Assembly (NCBI GenBank): GCA_964508925.1 | Contig: CAZDVM010000008.1 | Location: forward strand, 97,774 to 161,773 | DNA: 64,000 nt | Direction: 5' to 3' | DNA from: an uncultured Pirellulales bacterium | GTDB taxonomy: Bacteria > Planctomycetota > Phycisphaerae > Sedimentisphaerales > Anaerobacaceae | Part shown: positions 2,861 to 45,889 of the stretch, one piece after another | Layout of the letters: every line of letters begins with the position of its first letter | Numbering within the stretch: the first letter of the stretch is position 1 | The notes under the pieces: model-generated | What the model was told of the DNA's origin: nothing | The model's input: only the letters and a program-made list of their open reading frames with translations | Database searches by the model: none | Position numbers and translations under genes: made by a program

Positions 2861-2992
2861 TTAATTTGCGGCATCCTGAATTCCATCTCCAACTGCCGAA
2901 ATATCCTCTCCGATACCTTCAACCGTGTTACAGCCGACGCAGGAAACGATTAATATTAATATTGTTGCAATTAATAACATTTTACGGATCAT
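2861..2992 (-). CDS. Entericidin A/B-like small lipoprotein (43 aa)
   Basis: Below the 60-aa cutoff so absent from the ORF track. Translation MIRKMLLIATILILIVSCVGCNTVEGIGEDISAVGDGIQDAAN has a lipobox (VSC-VGC) and the GCNT..G.GxDI...G..I..AA entericidin signature. AAGGAG RBS sits 8 nt upstream of the ATG. Confidence 0.6.
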   Translation of the reverse strand: MIRKMLLIATILILIVSCVGCNTVEGIGEDISAVGDGIQDAAN

Positions 2993-3144
2993 TTTTAGAC
3001 TCCTTCTCTTATCAAAATTTTATTTTTAACTATTATATTATCTTTCTTCATGTAAGGAAATATATTTTATAATTGGAAAATTAATATCAATGCATTTATA
3101 ATCAGATTTGAATTTATTTCTATGTAAAAGGAAGAAAACTCAAA

Positions 3145-3915
3145 ATGCAGATAGCTACTTTTAATGTAAATTCACTGCGAGCACGAATCGGAATCGTGCG
3201 GGACTGGATCAAGGACAATAAGCCTGATGTGCTGTGCCTTCAGGAAACGAAGGTTCAGGATGATGAATTTCCGGAAGATGAATTCGACGGTTTCGAATAT
3301 AATTTCGTTTACCGGGGACAGAAGACTTACAACGGAGTTGCGATAATAAGCAGGCATGAGATAAATGATGTAGAGATGAGCCTGGATGAGGATCCGAAGG
3401 ATGAGGCAAGGCTGATAAAGGCAGCAGTTAATAATGTTGCGATAATAAATGCCTATGTACCACAGGGACAGTCGCGAGATTCTGATATGTTTCAATATAA
3501 ATTAGAATGGCTGGGGAATCTTAAGAAATTCATCGATAAGCGATTTAAGAAAAAAGACAAGGTTGTTCTAGTTGGGGATCTTAATATAGCTCCGGAGGAC
3601 AGAGACGTTTATGACCCGGAAATACTAGAGGGGCATGTCTGTTTTAATGAGGAAGTCAGTAAGATATTCGATGATCTGAAGGACTGGGGATTTGTGGACT
3701 GTTTCAGAAAGCATAATGAAAAGCACAGTCAGTTTTCTTTCTGGGATTATCGCGAGGGAAATGCGTTCAAGAAGAACCGCGGGTGGCGGCTTGATCATAT
3801 TCTTGCAACAAAGCCAATGGCGGACAAGTGTTCGAAGTGCTATATAGATAAGGGACAGAGGGAACTTAAAAAGCCGAGTGACCATACGCCCGTTATTGCG
3901 GAGTTCGATATATAA
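3145..3915 (+). CDS. xth: Exodeoxyribonuclease III
   Basis: MQIATFNVNSLRARIG...DVLCLQETK...SDHTPV: full ExoIII/APE1 family signature. Confidence 0.9.
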   Translation: MQIATFNVNSLRARIGIVRDWIKDNKPDVLCLQETKVQDDEFPEDEFDGFEYNFVYRGQKTYNGVAIISRHEINDVEMSLDEDPKDEARLIKAAVNNVAIINAYVPQGQSRDSDMFQYKLEWLGNLKKFIDKRFKKKDKVVLVGDLNIAPEDRDVYDPEILEGHVCFNEEVSKIFDDLKDWGFVDCFRKHNEKHSQFSFWDYREGNAFKKNRGWRLDHILATKPMADKCSKCYIDKGQRELKKPSDHTPVIAEFDI

Positions 3916-10374: not shown

Positions 10375-10799
10375 AGGCTTTTCGGCATTTCATAATTTCA
10401 TTTTCGAAGATCTTTTGCGGGCAAGTCCTATATTATTCGCTTTAAAAGGCGTTGTATGAAGGGGTGGAAAATTTTCTTAAAATTTTTGAATTTTGTTCGG
10501 TTTTTGTTTGGGTTTTCCAGGTCGGTTTGCCGATAGAGTTATACACATTGCAAATGATAAAAAATGATCGGATGAAACCATGAAAAAAGAAGATAATAAA
10601 AAACCTTTATGTGTATTCGGGCCGGGCGGAGATTTCAATTCGATCCTCCGTTCAAGTGCTGAATTATCAGAAAATGAAAGCGGAGGACCGCTGGGTTCGG
10701 CTCTGGCTTTGATCAGGGATACTCTGAAGACTCTTTTGAGTCCGGACTCATATGAATATTCAGATGATGTAAGTGAAGTATTTAACGAAAAGGAAAAAA

Positions 10800-11426
10800 A
10801 TGTTAACACCACGTCAATTGGAATTGTTGAAAACGGTAAAAGATCTAACAGACAGCAACTGTTATTCCCCGTCAATAACAGAGCTGGCGACAGAAGCGGG
10901 AATAAGCCGAAGCACCGCATACGAACATATAAGCGAACTCAAAAACAAAAAAATGCTCACAGCTATCCCCGGCAAGGCTCGCTCTTTGAAAACAACTTCA
11001 AAGGCACTAAAACTGCTTGAGCAGTTAGATCGCCAACCGGAGGCAGAATCGAACGGATCGGGTATTCCGCTTTTGGGAAGGGTAGCGGCAGGTATGCCTA
11101 TTGAGGCGGTTGAAAACAGGGAATATTTGTCACTTGAGGATCAATTTGCCGTTTCCGATGATTCTTTCGCCTTAATGGTCAAAGGTAACAGTATGATCGG
11201 TGACAATATTTTTGACGGGGATTATGTGATCTGCAGGAGAACTGCCGCAGCCCGAAACGGAGAGCTTGTAGTTGCGATCATCGATAATGAAAATGCAACT
11301 CTGAAGAGATTTTTCAAGGAAAGTGACAGAATTCGGCTTCAGCCTTCCAATGAAGATTATGAACCGATCTATACGGACAACTGTCGGATCGAGGGTGTGG
11401 TTACCGGTTTGATGAGAAAATACTAG
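10800..11426 (+). CDS. lexA: LexA repressor
   Basis: LTPRQLELLK...ITELA...GISRSTAYEHI (LexA wHTH), then VAAGMPIEAVEN (Ala-Gly self-cleavage site) and GNSMIGDNI...GDYVICRR (S24 Ser/Lys). The ATG at 10800 has an AAGGA RBS. The ORF-track start at 10773 is a GTG. Confidence 0.9.
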   Translation: MLTPRQLELLKTVKDLTDSNCYSPSITELATEAGISRSTAYEHISELKNKKMLTAIPGKARSLKTTSKALKLLEQLDRQPEAESNGSGIPLLGRVAAGMPIEAVENREYLSLEDQFAVSDDSFALMVKGNSMIGDNIFDGDYVICRRTAAARNGELVVAIIDNENATLKRFFKESDRIRLQPSNEDYEPIYTDNCRIEGVVTGLMRKY

Positions 11427-14473: not shown

Positions 14474-14628
14474 CAGGGAAAAAGTTAAAATAAACCCAAA
14501 AACATTTGGTTTTATGTTCATAATTATGCCGGTTTTAAAAACAACCCTCTTTCTCCCATTCCCTGACCAGCAGATCTCAGGTTACGAATAATGCCTTTTA
14601 CTCGTCCTTTTTACTAAGCAGCCGCTTT

Positions 14629-14808
14629 TTAAATATCAACATCCAGTAAAGACGGTTCAATGAAATCGGCAAGCTGTGCTATGAGTTTTCCCTGCAAAGT
14701 ATGCAGATCAAGCAGTTTTTCGAGAGTTTCAGCAGCTTTTGACCTGTCGAATTTTACTTGAACCTCTTTCTGTATGTTATGGCGGCCATTTTGTACCTCT
14801 TTGAACAT
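14629..14808 (-). CDS. Candidate small ORF (59 aa) divergent from the XRE-S24 repressor gene
   Basis: Absent from the ORF track. Translation MFKEVQNGRHNIQKEVQVKFDRSKAAETLEKLLDLHTLQGKLIAQLADFIEPSLLDVDI. It shares the 160-nt operator-bearing intergenic region with the repressor gene, a CI/Cro-like arrangement. No strong RBS. Confidence 0.3.
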   Translation of the reverse strand: MFKEVQNGRHNIQKEVQVKFDRSKAAETLEKLLDLHTLQGKLIAQLADFIEPSLLDVDI

Positions 14809-14856
14809 AATAATCCTTTCTCCGCTATTGACTTTGCAATAGCGATGTGTTACAAA

Positions 14857-14944
14857 TATTTCGCAAATATAAATTATACAGCCGTATATTATCGTTTATG
14901 CGAATATTTTTAAGTATTTACTTACGTTTTTGCGAATTATTTTG
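14857..14944. promoter_or_regulatory. Three copies of a TTGCGAAWWATTT operator-like motif (one inverted) in the repressor promoter
   Basis: TATTTCGCAAATAT (14857-14870, inverted), TATGCGAATATTTT (14897-14910), TTTTTGCGAATTATTTT (14926-14944), all within 110 nt upstream of the ATG at 14967. Confidence 0.5.
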
Positions 14945-14966
14945 AGTTTTTTTAGACCGGCAGATA

Positions 14967-15923
14967 ATGAGCAGTAATTCAGACCAGCAGATCATAGAAA
15001 GGGTGAAGATCCTGCGCGATAAATTTGCAGGGCCTCGAGGTAAAAGCAAGTTTGCCAAGGCGATTGGCATCAGCCCATCGACGTATAATTATTACGAAAA
15101 AGACCGGGTACCGCCTATTGAGACCCTGGTCAAAATGGCGGAACTGTCCGGTGCTGACCTGGTATGGCTTTTGACCGGCAAAAAAAACACAGAAAAACTT
15201 CAGCTGGGGCCTAACCAGGGATTGATAAAGAAGATCATCAGGCTGCTGGATGAAAACCAGGAGCTTGCGGGGCCTCTGGAAGCTTTTGTAGAACTTCTGG
15301 AAGCTCAACAGGAAATAGAGAATAAGGGTAAGTCAAAAAAAGTTAAGGATGATAAGGGCGGGGATAACTGGATCCCGGTGCTGGGAAGAACGGCAGCGGG
15401 GATTGCTTACAAGTGGAACGAAACTTTAAAACAACAAAGGCCCGATGTTACGGAACTTAAAGATATCGTTAAAGAACATACCGGAAAGGACATCTTAGAC
15501 AGCAGGGAGAAGAAAATCGAGATAGACCTGAAAGCCAGACCTTTGATGGAAAATCTTTCGGAGGGGGAAGTTAGCATTGTCAGGGTTACTGAAAATAACG
15601 GGGATGAACTGTTCGAATTCGTGGACAGTGAAAAAATAATCAGTATGTTCTCGGATGCGTTTGCATTGCATATTGACGGCGACAGCATGTCTCCGAAGAT
15701 AAATGACGGTAATATAGTGATAGTCAGTCCTTCAGTTAATGCTATCGAAGGCCAGACAGCAGTGGTAAAGATAAAGGATCAGATAGGAGTTACATGCAAA
15801 TTATTCCGTAAAGATGGGGGAAAAGTGCACCTGATCCCCGTCAATGAGAAATTCGATACTAAAGTATTCGATGAAAATGAACTTGAATGGGCCCTGGCAG
15901 TTTTGTGTCATGTCGATTTTTGA
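14967..15923 (+). CDS. LexA/CI-like self-cleaving repressor: XRE-family HTH fused to S24 peptidase
   Basis: 318 aa. N-term FAKAIGISPSTYNYYEKDRVPPIETLVKMAELSGADLVWLLTG (Cro/C1 HTH). LGRTAAGIAYKWNE (LexA-like Ala-Gly cleavage region). C-term GDSMSPKINDGNIVIV...KLFRKDGG (S24 Ser/Lys dyad). Confidence 0.85.
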   Translation: MSSNSDQQIIERVKILRDKFAGPRGKSKFAKAIGISPSTYNYYEKDRVPPIETLVKMAELSGADLVWLLTGKKNTEKLQLGPNQGLIKKIIRLLDENQELAGPLEAFVELLEAQQEIENKGKSKKVKDDKGGDNWIPVLGRTAAGIAYKWNETLKQQRPDVTELKDIVKEHTGKDILDSREKKIEIDLKARPLMENLSEGEVSIVRVTENNGDELFEFVDSEKIISMFSDAFALHIDGDSMSPKINDGNIVIVSPSVNAIEGQTAVVKIKDQIGVTCKLFRKDGGKVHLIPVNEKFDTKVFDENELEWALAVLCHVDF

Positions 15924-38440: not shown

Positions 38441-38998
38441 ATGATAAGAAACGAACCGGAAAAAAACAGAAATAACGCTGCTGATTTAAAAGGAGCTGCT
38501 GAAGATACTAAATTTTTCAGGAACCACAGCTTCAGGATATTAAGCAGTCTGCGTAAAATAACGCATTCAGTGGCCATATATTCAAAAAAACTGAAAAAAA
38601 TATATGGTATAACAGGGCCTCAGCTGCTCTGTCTGTATGCTATTGAAGAAAACGGGCCCACCACTTTGACCGAGATCAGCAAACTTATCAGCTTAAGCAG
38701 CAGTACAATACTGGGCATAGTGGACAGACTGGAAAAGAAAGACCTTGTAGAAAGAAGAAGAGATTCAAAAGACAGGAGAAAAGTATTTATCACCACAACC
38801 TCAAAAGGGAGCGAATTTGCACTCAATGCTCCCATGCTGCTTGAAGATAAGGTAGCGGAAGGGATTCTGAAAAAAGACGAAAAAGATCAGGCTGCGATCG
38901 CATGGTCGTTAGAGCAGATCGTTACGCTCATGGATGAAAACTGTTTTTCAGACATAAGTAAATCGGAAATTGAATCTTTTGAAAAAAATATAAGATAA
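38441..38998 (+). CDS. MarR-family transcriptional regulator
   Basis: ITGPQLLCLYAIEENGPTTLTEISKLISLSSSTILGIVDRLEKKDLVERRRDSKDRRKV: winged HTH of MarR. Its end lies 58 nt upstream of ablA. Confidence 0.85.
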   Translation: MIRNEPEKNRNNAADLKGAAEDTKFFRNHSFRILSSLRKITHSVAIYSKKLKKIYGITGPQLLCLYAIEENGPTTLTEISKLISLSSSTILGIVDRLEKKDLVERRRDSKDRRKVFITTTSKGSEFALNAPMLLEDKVAEGILKKDEKDQAAIAWSLEQIVTLMDENCFSDISKSEIESFEKNIR

Positions 38999-39057
38999 GA
39001 ATTTCTGAAAGATTAAAACTGCGTTCAACTTTATTAACTCATTAGAGGGTTATAATT

Positions 39058-40368
39058 ATGATAAAAGTGCTTAAAGACAAAAAAATGAAAGTTAAAGAAG
39101 CTATTTCCATTGATAAAGATATTTTCAAATGGGAAGACTGGAGATGGCAGCTGAAACATTCTATCAAAAGCATCGAGACATTCGAGGAGCTGCTTGGTAT
39201 CCAGTTCAGGGAAGACATACGTGAAGAGATCGAAAAGACCGTGGAGAAGTTCCCTTTAAGCATTACTCCGTACTACCTTTCATTAATAGATACAGACGAT
39301 ATTAAGAACGATCCTATATTCAAACAGGCCTTCCCTTCCCCTCATGAAATGGACGATCACAAATGTGACATGTCCGACCCGCTTGCAGAAGATAAGGACA
39401 GCCCGGTGGAAGGGATCACTCACAGGTATCCTGACAGGGTGCTTTTCCTTGTAAGTAATGTCTGTTCAATGTACTGCAGACACTGTACTAGAAAAAGAAG
39501 GGTTGGCGACGTCGATTTCGTGCCGGACAAGAAAACTATCTTAAAAGGGATCAAATACATAAAGGATCATCCGGAGGTACGTGACGTGCTGCTTTCGGGC
39601 GGAGATCCGTTTTTGCTATCAAATGAATACCTGGACTGGATTTTGAGCGAACTTGCAGAGATCGAACATCTGGAGGTTATAAGGATCGGCACGAGAACGC
39701 CGGTAGTTCTGCCTCAGAGGATAACGGATGAACTGGTGGATGTTCTCAGGAAATACCAGCCGATCTGGATAAATACACATTTCAACCATCCCAGGGAAAT
39801 AACTAAATCCTCCAGAAAAGCCGTAAAAAAACTTGCAGATGCAGGTATCCCGCTGGGTAATCAGTCGGTACTTCTTGCGGGTGTCAACGACTGCCCGCGG
39901 ATAATGAAGGCCCTGGTACATAAGCTTGTCGAAAACAGGATCAGGCCTTACTATCTGTATCAGTGTGACCTTTCAGAGGGATTGACGCATTTCAGAACGC
40001 CCGTCGGAAAAGGTATCGAAATAATAGAAAATCTCATCGGCCATACTTCCGGATTTTGCGTCCCCAGATATGTAATAGATGCTCCGGGCGGAGGCGGAAA
40101 AATTCCGGTAATGCCGAATTACCTGATATCATGGTCAACGAATAAAGTTGTACTGAGGAATTACGAAGGTGTCATTACCACCTATAAAGAGCCTGATTCG
40201 TATGAGCCTATCTTCTGCGACAGGAAATGCGGCGACTGCAAACTGCAATTAAAAACAGATGACGCCGAAGAGCAAAAGGCCACGGGTATCTGTAAACTTC
40301 TCAACGATTACGATAAGGATATATCACTGACGCCTTCGGAAAATGAACGTCACTCAAGAAGGAAATAG
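39058..40368 (+). CDS. ablA: L-lysine 2,3-aminomutase (radical SAM, KamA/AblA)
   Basis: [12 protein letters not shown] (CX3CX2C radical-SAM cluster of the KamA family). Whole-length KamA similarity ([27 protein letters not shown]). Confidence 0.85.
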
Positions 40369-40370
40369 TT

Positions 40371-41819
40371 ATGGCTGTAATTGACTATATCCTCTTCGGT
40401 CTGTATATGGCAGGTGTCCTCGGGATCGGATACTACCATTTCCTGAGAAACGAGGACAGGGAAGATTATTACGTCGGCAGCAGATCCATCAAGGCTCACC
40501 ACGTAGGTTTATCCATAGTCGCCACCGACGTAGGGGGCGGCTTTTCCATAGGTCTGGGCGGACTTGGGTTCGTGATGGGACTTGCGGGAAGTTGGCTTTT
40601 GTTTACCGGCCTTATAGGTGCCTGGCTGACTGCCGTGATAGTAATACCGAGGATCAAGAAATTCGACAGAAAACATAAGATGTTCACCTATCCGGATTTT
40701 TTAAGGTTCAGATATAATGAGAAAGTGGCCCTTGCAGCTGCCCTGATATCCGGGCTGGGATATATGGGATTTACAGGAGCACAGGTTCTGGCAGGTGCCA
40801 AACTGGCATCGGCTACCCTGATAACCAAGGCTCCTTTCGGTCTTACTCCCCTTGAATTTTCCATCTATATAATCGCCTGTATAACTCTTGTTTACACAGT
40901 GATCGGGGGTTTGAAGGCGGTCATATATACTGATACCGCACAATGGGCGATTCTTTTAACCGGTCTGATATTTGTTACTATACCGGTGACTCTTTTTAAA
41001 CTGGGAGGTATCTCCAGACTGAAAGAGGCACTGCCTTCGAATTACTTTGACCTGACCAACATAACCGCAACCCAGTTTATAAACTGGATGGTGACTATTA
41101 TACCTATCTGGCTGATAGGAATGACACTTTACCAGCGAATGTACGCCTGCAAGAACGAAGAGGAGGCCAAAAAGGCCTGGTACATCGCCGGTCTGTTCGA
41201 GTACCCGGTAATGGCTTTCACCGGCGTTTTTCTTGGGATGTGTGCAAAGGTGCTTATCCCGGAGGCGGAGTCGGAAATGGCAATGCCCATGCTGATATCA
41301 CGGATGCTGCCCATAGGAGTGACGGGGATTGTTATCGCATCTTATTTTTCGGCTATAATGTCAACCGCAGACAGTTGCCTTATGGCATCATCGGGCAACC
41401 TGGTCAACGACGTACTTCACAGGTATATATTCAAGAACAATTCTGACAAGCAGCTGATGTTCTTATCACAGATAGTAACACTTATCATCGGCATAGTCGC
41501 CATCGTGATCGCAAGTGAATTTAAAAAGGTGCTCGATGCCATATTATATGCCTACGCCTTCATGGTTTCAGGGTTGTTCATACCGACACTGGGTGCATAT
41601 CTGTGGAAAAAGGCGAGCTCGACCGGGGCTTTATTGAGCATGATAGCTGGTGGAAGTCTGACATTGACCCTGCAGATAAAGCCCGAACTCCTGCCGGAAA
41701 AATTAAGTAAGACAGGTTTAGATGCCACGGTCTACGGCATTTTGATCTCACTGATCATATTTATAAGTTGTTCCTATATATTTCCCGATAAAGAAAAGAC
41801 GAATCATTATGACATTTGA
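40371..41819 (+). CDS. Sodium:solute symporter family (SSF) transporter
   Basis: 482 aa, ~13 TM helices. SSF-like N-terminal Y..GR...........GG motif region. Inserted between ablA and ablB. Confidence 0.75.
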
Positions 41820-42648
41820 CAAGATAGAAAAGATCGGAAGTTCACTGATACAGCACGGCGAGATGAACAGCAGGATTTACCTGATGAAACTCCATCATGA
41901 GGATTTTCCCGATATTGTCGAAAACATAGATAAGCTGTCCGAAAAAAACAACTATACAAAGATATTCGTCAAGATTCCCGCCGAATTCGAGAAAAAATTC
42001 GAGAAGTTCGGTTATCAGCGGGAAGCCTGTATACCGAAATTCTTCAACGGCAGAAAAGATGCCGTCTTCATGGGTAAGTATTTCAGCGAACACAGGAAAA
42101 ACGATAAAAATCTCGAAATAATTAAAACAAACCTGAAACTGGCTGAGGAAAAAAGGAAAACTCCGGCAAGCAGTGACATCCCGGAAGGTTTCGAGTTCTC
42201 GAAATTGAGTTCTGACAGTGTCGATGAAGCTGCTCAATTGTACAAGGATATCTTCACCAAATATCCTTTTCCCATCTTCGACCCGGTTTACCTGCACAAT
42301 ACCATGGAAAGTCACGTCGATTATTTTTGCGTGCGGGACAAAGGTAAGATGATCGCACTTGCATCGGCTGAAAAGGATGAGGAACACCAAAATGTAGAGA
42401 TGACGGATTTTGCTACCATACCAGAATATCGAGGCAGAGGCCTTGCTTCAGCACTTTTAAAGAAAATGGAAGAGGAAATGAAAGATCAGGGTATGAAAAC
42501 CGCCTATACCATCGCAAGGGCCTTGTCTGCGGGAATGAATATCACCTTTGCAAGGGCAGGCTATGAATTTGCGGGAACATTGATAAACAACACCAACATA
42601 TATTCAGGCCTTGAGAGCATGAACGTGTGGTACAAGCCGCTTAAATAG
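41809..42648 (+). CDS. ablB: Putative beta-lysine N6-acetyltransferase (GNAT)
   Basis: 279 aa, the length class of AblB. C-terminal GNAT motif [19 protein letters not shown]. Positioned in an abl operon. Overlaps the SSF gene by 11 nt. Confidence 0.6.
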
Positions 42649-42666
42649 GCGATACGGCAACACATG

Positions 42667-43929
42667 TCACTTTATTTTTAAGATTTCGTCCCAGCGGGTG
42701 GTGTATCTTGCCGAACGGTGCATTGCCTTCATCTGCCATAGCTGATCCGTACCCTGGGCGGCGAATCTGAGCTGGGAGAAGGGAAAGTCCCGGTTTATCC
42801 GGTCTATTGTTTTCATCAGTTTTTTCGATCTGCTGCGGCTTACGGTATTAAAGAAATTTTCCTGGATATTATCTTCATTTACCAGGCCGGTGAGCATAAG
42901 GCCGGATTTTTTGAATTCCTGCCCCTGCCGGTAGAGTTTTTTCACTATTTTGCGAGCACTTTCAATGAGCTCGGGCGTATTCTGCGTCGGTGTCAGAAAC
43001 TTCACAGTGGCGGAATTATAATAGCTCTGATCGGAATCGAAACGGTTTGTCATCACGAAAACGGTCATGCAGGAGGCGGCCTTTTTTTCTTCTCTTAACT
43101 TTTCGCCCGCCCTTGCTGCATACTGGCTGGTTGCCTCCATGAGTTCATCGAGATCAGTCACCGGCCTGCCGAAGCCGCGCGAACAGGTGATCCCCTTTTT
43201 TGCAGGGGGATTGGACTCCAGGGGATAGCAGCTTATGCCGCGAAGTTCGTAAACGGTTCTTACTCCTACCACGCCGAATGTTTTCCTTACCCTTTCGGCG
43301 TCGGCATCCCGCAGCTGTTTTGCATTTTGGATCCCTATCTTTCTTAGTTTTTTGGCTGTTCTGCGTGCTACCCCCCAGATATCTTCAAGTTCGATCTTTT
43401 CAAGGGCCTTATTGAGATAGAGGGAGTCGCTGAGATCGAGAACGCCGCCTGCTTTCTTGGATTTTTTGGCTATCTTGTTTGCAGCCTTGGCAAGTATCTT
43501 CGTAGGTGCTATACCGACTGAAACCGGGATTCCCATCCACTGCTTGACGGTCGCTTTCATTTCCCTGCAGTACTTTGTCAAATCCGCGGGGATGCCGCTT
43601 AAGTCCAGAAAAGCCTCGTCTATAGAGTAAACTTCGATCTCGGGAGTAAATTCAGCCAGCGTCTGCATTACCCTTGAGGACATGTCGGCATAAAGGGCAT
43701 AGTTTGAAGAATAAACTTCCACATGATGTTTTTCAAGCTGATCTTTGACCTTGAAATACGGAATGCCCATGGGTATGCCGATGGCTTTGGCCTCATTGGA
43801 TCGGGCTACCACACAACCATCGTTATTGGAAAGTACCACCACCGGCTTGTTGTTTAAGTGCGGGTCGAAAACCCTTTCACACGAGACGTAAAAATTGTTG
43901 CAGTCTACTAGTGCAAAAATCTTTTTCAT
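42667..43929 (-). CDS. umuC: Error-prone translesion DNA polymerase V subunit UmuC (Y-family)
   Basis: [19 protein letters not shown]...[19 protein letters not shown]: Y-family polymerase N-terminus. 420 aa. Confidence 0.9.
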
Positions 43930-44366
43930 AGCTGATGAATTACGTAAGTTACAACGCCCCAGACCTCGAATTCCATGGACTCATCCAGTTCCTGTGTCTG
44001 GAAATCCTCGTTTTCCGGTTCCAGATAATATTTCCCTTTGATTATACGGATTCGCTTGACAGTGAGTTCCCCGTTAATATTGGCGATAACCACTTTTTTA
44101 TTGCGAGGTTCAACGGATCTGTCAACAACCAGCAAATCGCCTGAATGAATGCCGGCACCCAGCATGGAATCACCGGTGACACGTACAAAATATGTGGCGG
44201 CGGGATTTTTGATCAGGTACTTGTTTAAATCCAGCTTTTCTTCTTCGTAATCCGATGCCGGTGAAGGAAAACCGGCAGAGACATTAGCCACATACAACGG
44301 CTGTTTGCTGTCGGTTGACCAGTCCGGCTTGAATATGTTTTTTATCTTTATTCCCATGCCCGGCAT
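43926..44366 (-). CDS. umuD: UmuD-like S24 peptidase (translesion synthesis accessory protein)
   Basis: VSAGFPSPA...[25 protein letters not shown]...[11 protein letters not shown]. Overlaps umuC by 4 nt. The true start may be the ATG at 44357 (MGIKIK), which sits 7 nt downstream of a TGTTATAAT extended -10, giving a leaderless configuration. Confidence 0.85.
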
Positions 44367-44428
44367 TATAACAGAAATTATCGAAGTACTGAATTTTTTT
44401 AGTAATAAAGTTAATCACCGATTCATCC

Positions 44429-45478
44429 TCAGGTGTCAATGTCGTAGCCGTATTTTTCCACAGCCTGTTTCTTGATAAATTCCATGAGCACTGGATAATG
44501 TTTTTCGATATTAATCATCTCAATTTCCTGGTCTGTGCCGGTTTGCTTGCGGATAGCATCGGTTATCTTACCTGTTTCCCAGACATTGGGGCTGACTTCA
44601 TGGGTCATTTCAAAACCGTATTTATCCAGTGCGGTCAGAACCGGAACAGGATATGATATGGGCTCCGGATTCCCGCAGCCTTCTACATTCGGCATAAGTG
44701 TCGCTGTTATGTACCCGTCATCCAGTCCTATATCCATATTCCTTTTTTTAGTATCCACATGCAGCAGACCGCTGTACCATTTACCCCTCATCTTTTCGGT
44801 GGCCTGTATTGCCGTTTTTTTCGATACCCCTCCAAGCTTTTCCAGTTCTTTATCTATAGCCTCGGTCATTGCCTGATCATAATCCTCTCCTGAGCGCATT
44901 GCCTTGAGGCCTAGTCTTACACCGACCAGATTAGAGAAATTGTCTTCCCATGAAAATGCGGAATTGAATTCCGGCTCGAAGGCAGCAAATTTGGTACCGA
45001 ACCAGGTAATTATCTCGTGCCATAAAGTGGAATTGAAGGCAATATAAGGAGCCGCCTCGAAGGCGATCTCGTCGGCAATCTTTTCTCTTTGCTGTTTACC
45101 CATCTGCTTCCAGTTTGCAGGATAATCGAAACTTATATAATGAGTCGAAGGTTCCCAGGTCAGGTTATAATGAAATCCCTGCTCGTTTTCCAGCAAGGTC
45201 TCGCATATCCTTTCTATAAAATACCTGGTATAGTCAGCGTTCCATCTTACGTGAGTCAGATCAATATGTCCCCCTTTGCAAGTATAAACTTGAGCATTTT
45301 TTTCAAACAGGTCGAAATGATAAGAATGTTTTCCAATGTTGTCAGGGTCGACATATCGCGGGCCCGGCGGCGGCGTAGGCAGGGTTCCCATTCTCGGTCT
45401 CGGTGCTTTGATATTACATCCTGCTGCAAAGATCAACAAACACCCTCCAACTGCTGAAATTATTTCTCCTTTACTCAA
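44429..45478 (-). CDS. Hypothetical lipoprotein
   Basis: Signal peptide with lipobox (FAAGC). 349 aa. Family uncertain. The Cheo-like palindrome lies 47 nt upstream. Confidence 0.5.
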   Translation of the reverse strand: MSKGEIISAVGGCLLIFAAGCNIKAPRPRMGTLPTPPPGPRYVDPDNIGKHSYHFDLFEKNAQVYTCKGGHIDLTHVRWNADYTRYFIERICETLLENEQGFHYNLTWEPSTHYISFDYPANWKQMGKQQREKIADEIAFEAAPYIAFNSTLWHEIITWFGTKFAAFEPEFNSAFSWEDNFSNLVGVRLGLKAMRSGEDYDQAMTEAIDKELEKLGGVSKKTAIQATEKMRGKWYSGLLHVDTKKRNMDIGLDDGYITATLMPNVEGCGNPEPISYPVPVLTALDKYGFEMTHEVSPNVWETGKITDAIRKQTGTDQEIEMINIEKHYPVLMEFIKKQAVEKYGYDIDT

Positions 45479-45524
45479 TTTTAGTCCTCCGTCTTGAATA
45501 ATTTACTCAGTTTTGCTATCTTAT

Positions 45525-45540
45525 CCGAACAATTGTTCGG
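45525..45540. promoter_or_regulatory. Perfect 16-bp palindrome CCGAACAATTGTTCGG, a Cheo-box-type (CGAAC-N4-GTTCG) LexA operator candidate
   Basis: Matches the Bacillus-type SOS box consensus CGAACRNRYGTTCG. Lies in the 410-nt divergent intergenic region between the lipoprotein gene (44429-45478) and the EEP nuclease-family gene. Confidence 0.5.
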
Positions 45541-45889
45541 CATCCAGGTTAATTCAAAATACAAGGTGGTTATTGGAGGACTGCTTAAACCAAACGGTTT
45601 GATACTCTTCCTTCCCAATAAACCCCTTATCTAATTGCAGTTACAAGATTATCCGTATTTTTCTTCGGAGTCAAGGGTATTAATGAATTTTTAATTCAGA
45701 CGAATATCTTGTATTGACGATTATTTTAAAAGCTGCATTTTCTTTAAGTTTTGCTCTTTAAACAGGAATACCTGTCTCAGAGGCAACGGGATTGCCCGGA
45801 GTAAAACAAAAATCCGGATTACAGTAATGAGAATTTAAATTTGGGGGTGTACAGTTTACACCGTATTTTTTAATTGGAGATCTCAGGGT

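Follow-up and report, generated by a model that had tools for sequence, protein, structure and literature searches.

Why does a sequence that resembles an SOS box stand in front of a lipoprotein gene in a planctomycete, and does LexA bind it? In the window (the whole 64-kb stretch of DNA analyzed here), a sequence-only reading had picked out a perfect 16-bp palindrome, CCGAACAATTGTTCGG, in which CCGAACAA is joined to TTGTTCGG to give a GAAC-N4-GTTC core, and had placed it 47 nt upstream of a lipoprotein gene. Both statements hold: the dyad consensus CGAAC-N4-GTTCG is matched with zero mismatches at 45526-45539, and the distance is that to the TTG start codon at 45478. The same reading described the box as heading the lipoprotein gene rather than umuDC. 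The first half of this description is right and the second is misleading, since umuD and umuC follow the lipoprotein gene directly on the same strand. In minus-strand order, the palindrome is followed by the DUF4056 lipoprotein gene, a 62-nt gap, umuD and umuC (Table 1), and the box heads a co-directional string of genes that contains umuDC.

The palindrome and the genes downstream

How unusual is the palindrome? Exact CGAAC-N4-GTTCG occurs once in the window, where 0.05 copies are expected, and CCGAACAATTGTTCGG is that only copy; 5 of 100 dinucleotide shuffles of the window contained at least one. That an exact match to GAAC-N4-GTTC should lie in intergenic DNA against so low an expectation counts in favor of a LexA site. 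When up to two mismatches were allowed, the window showed no excess (26 sites versus 21 expected), and the three sites with one mismatch are each intragenic. The 8-mer TTGTTCGG is also not enriched (4 occurrences versus 2.4 expected), which counts against a LexA site. Perfect palindromes of at least 16 bp are common, as the window holds four and 68% of mononucleotide shuffles held at least one, and the significance of CCGAACAATTGTTCGG therefore rests on its specific sequence and its position. Two of the other perfect palindromes of this length are TAAAATACTAGTATTTTA (315-332), which lies ahead of the first large gene (490-2838), and CCAGTTTATAAACTGG (41072-41087), within an SSF transporter gene.

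The lipoprotein gene is preceded by the Shine-Dalgarno (SD) sequence GGAGG and encodes the lipobox IFAAGC. Its DUF4056 domain has been placed in the CapCone/Lipocone superfamily (bioRxiv 10.1101/2025.01.14.632903), and every named member among its 241 homologues is from Planctomycetota. Downstream, an S24-type UmuD is followed by a Y-family UmuC with IMS, IMS_C and DUF4113 domains, which identifies a umuDC operon, and the two genes overlap by 4 nt. UmuC homologues that are 57-74% identical occur in Sedimentisphaerales and Anaerohalosphaeraceae MAGs. More generally, the homologues of each of the three proteins derive from Planctomycetota MAGs whose titles variously give Phycisphaerae, Sedimentisphaerales, Anaerohalosphaeraceae or Pirellulales. 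Logan assemblies made from SRR7048228 and its sibling samples contain matches to the window itself.

Are the lipoprotein gene and umuDC transcribed together? The 62-nt gap between them contains no terminator-like site and no stable hairpin (folding z = -0.75), and all three genes lie on one strand. The presence of two classic SOS genes in this position counts in favor of LexA control, and it weakens the word "unexpected" in the earlier proposal that an unexpected lipoprotein had joined the SOS regulon. Yet umuD keeps a conserved -10 element of its own. TATAAT or TATAAC is found 6-7 nt before the umuD ATG in the window and in every relative examined (L087, L088, L090 and L185), and in the window and L087 it takes the extended form TGTTATAAT. 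A -10 element so near the ATG points to a separate umuD promoter that yields a leaderless mRNA, and to a translation start at 44357 and not at 44366. From the ATG at 44357, UmuD has 143 amino acids, the same length as UmuD of the relatives. A strong extended -10 element and a leaderless start would make umuD independent of any upstream promoter, which argues against the LexA reading.

Two candidate promoters precede the lipoprotein gene. P1, which is conserved in L104, lies ~130 nt upstream of the box, and its use would place the palindrome at about +100 in the leader. Since a box within the transcribed leader would be unusual for a LexA operator, this too counts against LexA. P2 is a possible proximal promoter, proposed from its sequence, in which the 17-nt spacer consists of the palindrome plus A. 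P2 is a weak match to consensus (3/6 and 4/6) and is missing from the promoter-scan listing; the position of its -10 element is shared with L104, which has TAAACT 3 nt after TTGTTC. Thus the palindrome fills the spacer of a weak candidate promoter, yet it lies ~100 nt downstream of a better conserved one.

The flanks of this gene string drew our attention for other reasons. Convergent on umuC is a co-directional plus-strand cluster (38441-42648) that encodes a MarR protein, a LAM_C lysine 2,3-aminomutase-like radical SAM protein, an SSF transporter and a GNAT protein. Judged by its domains, it looks like a cluster for the compatible solute N-epsilon-acetyl-beta-lysine. The GNAT gene adjoining umuC is kept in L087. 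Upstream of the box on the plus strand, a hairpin, GGTGTAcagttTACACC, followed by GTATTTTTTA (45846-45872), lies ~20 nt before the start (45890) of an Exo_endo_phos lipoprotein gene. This hairpin is terminator-like, but with its location in a 5′ region it may act as an attenuator or operator.

Table 1. Coordinates of the features discussed, in the window and in related loci
Feature	Position	Strand	Details
lexA	10800-11426	+	winged HTH and S24 domain; Ala-Gly cleavage site; Ser and Lys present
Direct repeat upstream of lexA operon (candidate operator)	10491-10513	+	TTTTGTTCGG-T-TTTTGTTTGG-GT; GTTC-N7-GTTT; 11-bp period
lexA repeat in relatives	L094 2171-2193; L095 2102-2124; L096 2150-2172; L100 2259-2281
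Overlapping ORF at lexA in relatives	L094 2268-2705; L095 2203-2730; L096 2257-2748; L100 2362-2751
umuC	42667-43929	-	Y-family polymerase V catalytic subunit; NF002955, 459 bits (cut-off 431)
umuD	43926-44357 (ORF to 44366)	-	S24 peptidase, Pol V autoproteolytic subunit; NF007621, 165 bits (cut-off 110)
umuD extended -10 element	44365-44373	-	TGTTATAAT; 7 nt before ATG 44357
umuD -10 regions	window 44355-44373; L087 ~68-82; L088 ~2558-2575; L090 ~2558-2575; L185 ~1513-1530	- (window)
DUF4056 (CapCone/Lipocone superfamily) lipoprotein gene	44429-45478	-	349 aa; Pfam 102 bits
Palindrome (candidate LexA operator)	45525-45540		CCGAACAATTGTTCGG; perfect 16-bp palindrome, GAAC-N4-GTTC core
P2 (possible proximal promoter)	45518-45546	-	-35-like TGGATG 45541-45546; -10-like TAAGAT 45518-45523
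Leader stem	45565-45626	-	12 bp, GGGGnTTATTGGG ... CCnnATAACCnCC; then U-rich tract 45550-45562 just before the palindrome
P1 (conserved upstream promoter)	45646-45674	-	TTGACT, 17 nt, TAATCT; L104 TTGACA, 17 nt, TAATCT at the same place
Conserved promoter, leader stem and U-rich tract	window 45548-45674; L104 ~3700-3812	- (window)

A direct repeat upstream of lexA

Does the window encode a protein that could bind such a box? The lexA gene that the sequence-only reading had assigned is genuine. Its product matches TIGR00498 at 157 bits, contains PF01726 and PF00717, and aligns to solved LexA structures over residues 2-207, and a canonical LexA encoded in the window counts in favor of LexA as the ligand. 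The earlier report of no equivalent box at lexA or umuD also stands: in the 425 nt that precede lexA, neither the window nor any of four independent relatives has a palindromic box, and none lies directly upstream of umuD. The half-site-like stretch that had been noticed near lexA, TTGAATTTTGTTCGG at 10487-10501, is present and belongs to a conserved block of direct repeats.

Across five independent lexA loci, the upstream regions share the nearly invariant sequence TTTGT(T/C)CGGTTTTTGTT(T/A)GGGTT, even though the encoded LexA proteins have only 60-73% identity. This block, which can also be written TTTGTTCGG-TTTTTGTT(T/A)GG with the units TTTTGTTCGG and TTTTGTT(T/A)GG, repeats TTTTGTT(C/T/A)GG in direct orientation every 11 bp, which gives GTTC-N7-GTT(T/A), and precedes the first ORF of the lexA operon by 67-89 nt. 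The first half-site is GTTC in four of the five loci (GTCC in L096), the second is GTTT or GTTA, and the spacing is 7 in all five. At 0-1 mismatch, the repeat occurs only at lexA in ~0.92 Mb of related DNA. It is flanked by a conserved TT(G/A)(C/T)CGATA(G/C) ~15 nt downstream and a conserved GTCC(C/T)ATATTAT ~60 nt upstream. The repeat is probably the autoregulatory LexA operator of the clade. A description of the element as a degenerate palindrome (CCGAA-N4-TTCGG in L094) was rejected, since the left arm varies in both sequence and spacing from relative to relative. An Rfam search with the regulatory regions of lexA and the lipoprotein gene returned nothing relevant.

How does this repeat relate to the palindrome? 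Its first half-site, TTGTTCGG, is identical to each palindrome arm; by our own calculation, the chance of finding a given 8-mer on either strand within a 23-nt block is ~5x10^-4. The common half-site ties the palindrome to LexA and not to an unrelated regulator. Thus, the suggestion of the sequence-only reading that the LexA operator differs in this organism is borne out at lexA, whereas its corollary, that the palindrome serves another dimeric regulator, is undercut by TTGTTCGG. The geometry, however, counts against LexA: the lexA half-sites of the clade form an 11-bp direct repeat, whereas those of the palindrome are inverted with an 8-bp spacing between centers.

We also scanned viral contigs for both motifs. 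The lexA-type repeat gave five hits, among them tandem TGTTCGG-TTTT-TGTT(T/A)GG units in L105 (1530-1626), L106 (5130-5175) and L108 (4880-4925). The arrays in L106 and L108 adjoin large ORFs that, on inspection and without a family search, resemble terminase and portal genes. We rejected these repeats as SOS sites; they look like packaging sites, and their resemblance to the lexA repeat is probably coincidental. The exact palindrome was found at 75 viral loci, as expected for phages of Gram-positive hosts.

The lexA region has a further feature, an unannotated plus-strand ORF of 146 codons (10580-11020) whose 3′ part covers lexA codons 1 to ~74 in a different frame. An equivalent ORF is present in all five loci, where it encodes 129-175 amino acids, starts ~140-300 nt upstream of lexA, overlaps lexA by 221-251 nt (its first 73-83 codons) and stops at the same relative place. 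The non-overlapping N terminus carries an invariant P-(L/V)-C-x-F-G-P-G-G-D motif and the C terminus is basic (KPKHRIRTxRRTxKK...GQGSLFE). An exhaustive protein-library search found 188 clusters of this family at 50% identity, mostly of 145-180 amino acids, and there was no match in Pfam. At conserved LexA residues, codon (synonymous) identity is 63% within the overlap and 43% outside it, while LexA amino acid identity is similar in the two regions (69% and 65%), which is the pattern that dual coding would produce. We regard 10580-11020 as a candidate overlapping gene of the lexA operon.

LexA is also not the only S24-type repressor in the window. A 318-amino-acid XRE-type HTH and S24 repressor-like protein is encoded at 14967-15923 (+). 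Its upstream region (14600-14960) contains three GCGAAT-containing repeats (e.g., ATATTTCGCAAATAT) and a small divergent ORF on the other strand (~14612-14809), an arrangement reminiscent of a CI/Cro-type switch or of a non-canonical SOS regulator.

Origin of the box and competing explanations

Is the box an ancestral feature of the lipoprotein gene? Our comparison set consisted of 80 DUF4056 loci from species-representative genomes, plus L103 and L104, which encode the closest relatives (62% and 61% protein identity, respectively). None of the 80 loci had the box at up to one mismatch within 350 nt upstream of the gene, and umuD or umuC followed the gene in none of them; L077 alone has umuC, ~4.7 kb upstream. 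L103 and L104 keep the divergent Exo_endo_phos lipoprotein neighbor and lack both the box and umuDC; in L104, the next gene after DUF4056 is a convergent DUF2254 gene. As box and adjoining umuDC are missing from all these loci, we rejected an ancestral regulator site of the lipoprotein gene. The loci compared here amount to ~0.92 Mb, most of it related planctomycete DNA, and within them the exact motif is confined to L001 and L002, duplicate contigs of the window. This distribution can be read in two ways. Conservation limited to identical sibling contigs counts against a LexA site, and the restriction of the box to the lineage in which umuDC follows the lipoprotein gene counts in its favor.

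One sample offers a view of what may have come before. L104, L087 and L094 all derive from it; the UmuC of L087 is 74% identical to that of the window and is followed by the same convergent GNAT gene, and the LexA of L094 is 73% identical. The two gene blocks appear to be apart in that relative, on different contigs of one sample, and joined in the genome of the window. The upstream regions of the DUF4056 genes of the window and L104 align with 71% identity, and at the position of the palindrome L104 has only the right half, TTTTGTTCA (...TTTGATTTTGTTCAT...), which fits a site built in place after the arrival of umuDC.

Nor is the palindrome the umuDC operator of the clade. The umuD or DUF72-umuDC promoters of five relatives (from the set L087-L093 and L185) contain no GAAC-N4-GTTC, direct repeat or half-site pair, and umuD has a promoter of its own, so we rejected this possibility. 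The lack of both motifs at these promoters leaves LexA control of umuDC in the clade conjectural and argues against the LexA reading. A weak look-alike upstream of DUF72 in L088, TTTTGTTACGGGTTTTTGATAAGG, has 12-13-nt phasing and was not accepted.

A search of metagenome contigs for umuC relatives returned four loci. In the Firmicutes-like loci L085 and L086, Cheo boxes occur in tandem, and these provided a positive control for the scan. In the marine (TARA) loci L083 and L084, whose UmuC is 43-44% identical to that of the window, repeated TTTCGTAT motifs lie upstream of umuD (~2900-3040), together with one CGTAT-TTT-ATACG palindrome in the umuD promoter region; these motifs could be a different SOS-type operator of another lineage. 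The Pol V genes of relatives often form a DUF72-umuD-umuC cassette (L185 3-3212; L088 1623-4266; L092 1283-3850). In L185, the gene for a divergent LexA paralogue (its recognition region is LAQNAVYQLVSYLKKKG) stands first, giving the order lexA paralogue-DUF72-umuD-umuC, and in L092 the cassette adjoins a phage-type integrase gene. Such cassettes may be mobile and carry their own regulator.

How might LexA have acquired this site? In the scenario we favor, a rearrangement would have brought the EEP/DUF4056 lipoprotein block to a position immediately before the umuD-umuC block and in the same orientation. The promoter-proximal region of the lipoprotein gene would then have gained two inverted TTGTTCGG half-sites, creating a Firmicutes-type GAAC-N4-GTTC operator. 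In undamaged cells, a LexA dimer on the palindrome would keep the lipoprotein gene from being transcribed, whether by occupying the P2 spacer (TGGATG, 17 nt, TAAGAT) or by acting as a roadblock ~100 nt downstream of the conserved TTGACT/TAATCT promoter. Upon DNA damage, RecA-stimulated self-cleavage of LexA would allow transcription to resume, and read-through of the terminator-free gap would add a damage-inducible component to the leaderless promoter of umuD. LexA binding, the choice of promoter, read-through into umuDC and damage induction are all inferred from sequence. We consider it an even chance that the palindrome is a newly evolved LexA site, with the lipoprotein gene damage-inducible and, through read-through, umuDC as well. 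A bolder proposal, which we find possible but doubtful, is that LexA of Phycisphaerae-type Planctomycetota reads the monomer TTGTTCGG in two ways: as a clade-wide direct repeat with 11-bp phasing at its own promoter, similar to the alphaproteobacterial kind, and as a Firmicutes-like inverted repeat at a target recruited recently in this lineage, once a rearrangement had brought the lipoprotein gene and umuDC together. The motif of the palindrome was found neither at lexA nor, in relatives, upstream of DUF4056 orthologues, umuD or DUF72-umuDC, and the palindrome, which looks functionally like a Cheo-type SOS box, is a candidate member of that class.

Could neutral drift in AT-rich intergenic DNA have produced a mimic of a Cheo box that has no regulatory role? 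The frequency of perfect palindromes of this length in the window and its shuffles, the lack of conservation of the palindrome in any relative and the lack of enrichment of the motif at up to two mismatches are what such drift would leave, ~5% of random 64-kb windows hold an exact CGAAC-N4-GTTCG, and the sequence-only reading had screened for many motifs. Nevertheless, a chance palindrome must also have fallen in the ~12% of the window that is non-coding, less than 50 nt from a start codon, on the strand of umuDC and with an 8-nt arm that equals part of the most conserved block of the lexA promoters, a combination for which we estimate a joint probability below 10^-3; we consider chance unlikely. 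It is less likely still that the palindrome is the operator of a different dimeric regulator of the lipoprotein gene and merely resembles a LexA box. Candidates for such a regulator would be a LexA paralogue like that of L185, where it is linked to umuDC, the XRE-HTH/S24 repressor, which is a second S24-type repressor encoded in the window, or a factor encoded outside the window, and the palindromic geometry, unlike the direct repeat at lexA, would suit one of them. However, the repeats upstream of the XRE-S24 gene are of the GCGAAT type and not GAAC/GTTC, the MarR gene (38441) is preceded by other repeats and no regulator gene adjoins the lipoprotein gene. That neither of the other regulators identified in the window, XRE-S24 and MarR, has a matching motif upstream counts in favor of LexA, and the probability that both arms of an unrelated operator would match xCGAACxx is only ~10^-3.

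It is also conceivable, although we rate this lowest, that the palindrome acts as RNA. Within a long 5′ leader transcribed from P1, it would form a 6-bp hairpin, CCGAAC-AAUU-GUUCGG, and influence how stable the mRNA is or how it is processed or translated. Such a leader has some appeal, since the upstream promoter and the 12-bp stem with its U-rich tail are kept in the window and L104 (12 of 12 pairs, two of them via one-sided changes, in a comparison of two sequences only), and the hairpin is present in both the minimum-free-energy and centroid folds. In addition, the SD region GGAGGACU (GGAGGACT; 45483-45490) has a complement in AGUCCUCC (AGTCCTCC; 45575-45582), and the leader could be an attenuator or a translational control element. 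However, the leader folds no more stably than shuffled sequence (z = -1.0 and +0.7), the predicted fold of L104 lacks an equivalent hairpin, the hairpin is not a terminator, as it has no U-tract after it, and Rfam has no match. Moreover, a hairpin would have no reason to match a LexA half-site.

Comparison with known SOS operators

What would it mean if LexA binds the palindrome? No SOS operator for Planctomycetota is described in the literature we searched, and the palindrome and the direct repeat at lexA would together provide a first handle on the SOS regulon of the phylum. The locus would also be a case of a regulon gaining a member through a change in gene order followed by the formation of a new operator, and would inform the question of how LexA motifs pass from an inverted to a direct architecture or back. 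Should LexA fail to bind, the palindrome would be an ordinary lineage-specific one of little consequence.

Of known operators, the closest is the Cheo box of the Firmicutes and Actinobacteria LexA (DinR), for which GAAC-N4-GTTC is the documented motif (PMC4951493). The two have an identical 14-bp core (CGAACAATTGTTCG) and are perfect dyads. Like a Cheo box, the palindrome appears to lie close to a promoter, on the strand that leads to genes for translesion polymerases; LexA likewise controls the umuDC-like yqjW operon of B. subtilis (PMC4951493). Unlike Cheo boxes, it occurs in a planctomycete whose own lexA promoter, like the umuD promoters of its relatives, lacks the palindrome. Since it is a single, lineage-specific instance, the LexA of the clade cannot be said to use the motif generally.

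The umuDC operon of E. coli offers a second comparison. Here, as in E. coli, the stop and start codons of umuD and umuC overlap and a LexA-type box lies upstream on the same strand. However, the E. coli SOS box is at the operon's own promoter, whereas in the window 1.17 kb of DNA, including an unrelated lipoprotein gene, separates the box from umuDC, and umuD's own promoter, unlike that of E. coli, apparently lacks an operator and gives a leaderless transcript.

The element at lexA has a different counterpart, the alphaproteobacterial LexA operator, which is the direct repeat GTTC-N7-GTTC (as cited in PMC4951493 and PMC8565304). The sequence found here, GTTC-GGTTTTT-GTT(T/A), has the alphaproteobacterial half-site, the 11-bp phasing and the location at lexA, but its second repeat ends in T or A instead of C, the phylum is unrelated and, in the DNA analyzed, the element was seen only at lexA. 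The palindrome differs from the alphaproteobacterial operator in being inverted.

The only SOS motif from the PVC superphylum in the literature we searched is that of Verrucomicrobia LexA, TGTTC-N4-GAACA (PMC4951493). It resembles the palindrome in its TGTTC and GAACA half-sites and 4-bp spacer, and the phyla are related. The palindrome is its mirror image, GAACA..TGTTC, and the Verrucomicrobia order was present at none of the sites studied. LexA motifs have been proposed to evolve by re-arranging the same monomer sites (PMC4951493). If LexA does read both geometries described here, they would define the first SOS box for Planctomycetota and offer a natural snapshot of a LexA motif changing its architecture by re-arrangement of half-sites, as that model of re-used monomer sites envisions.
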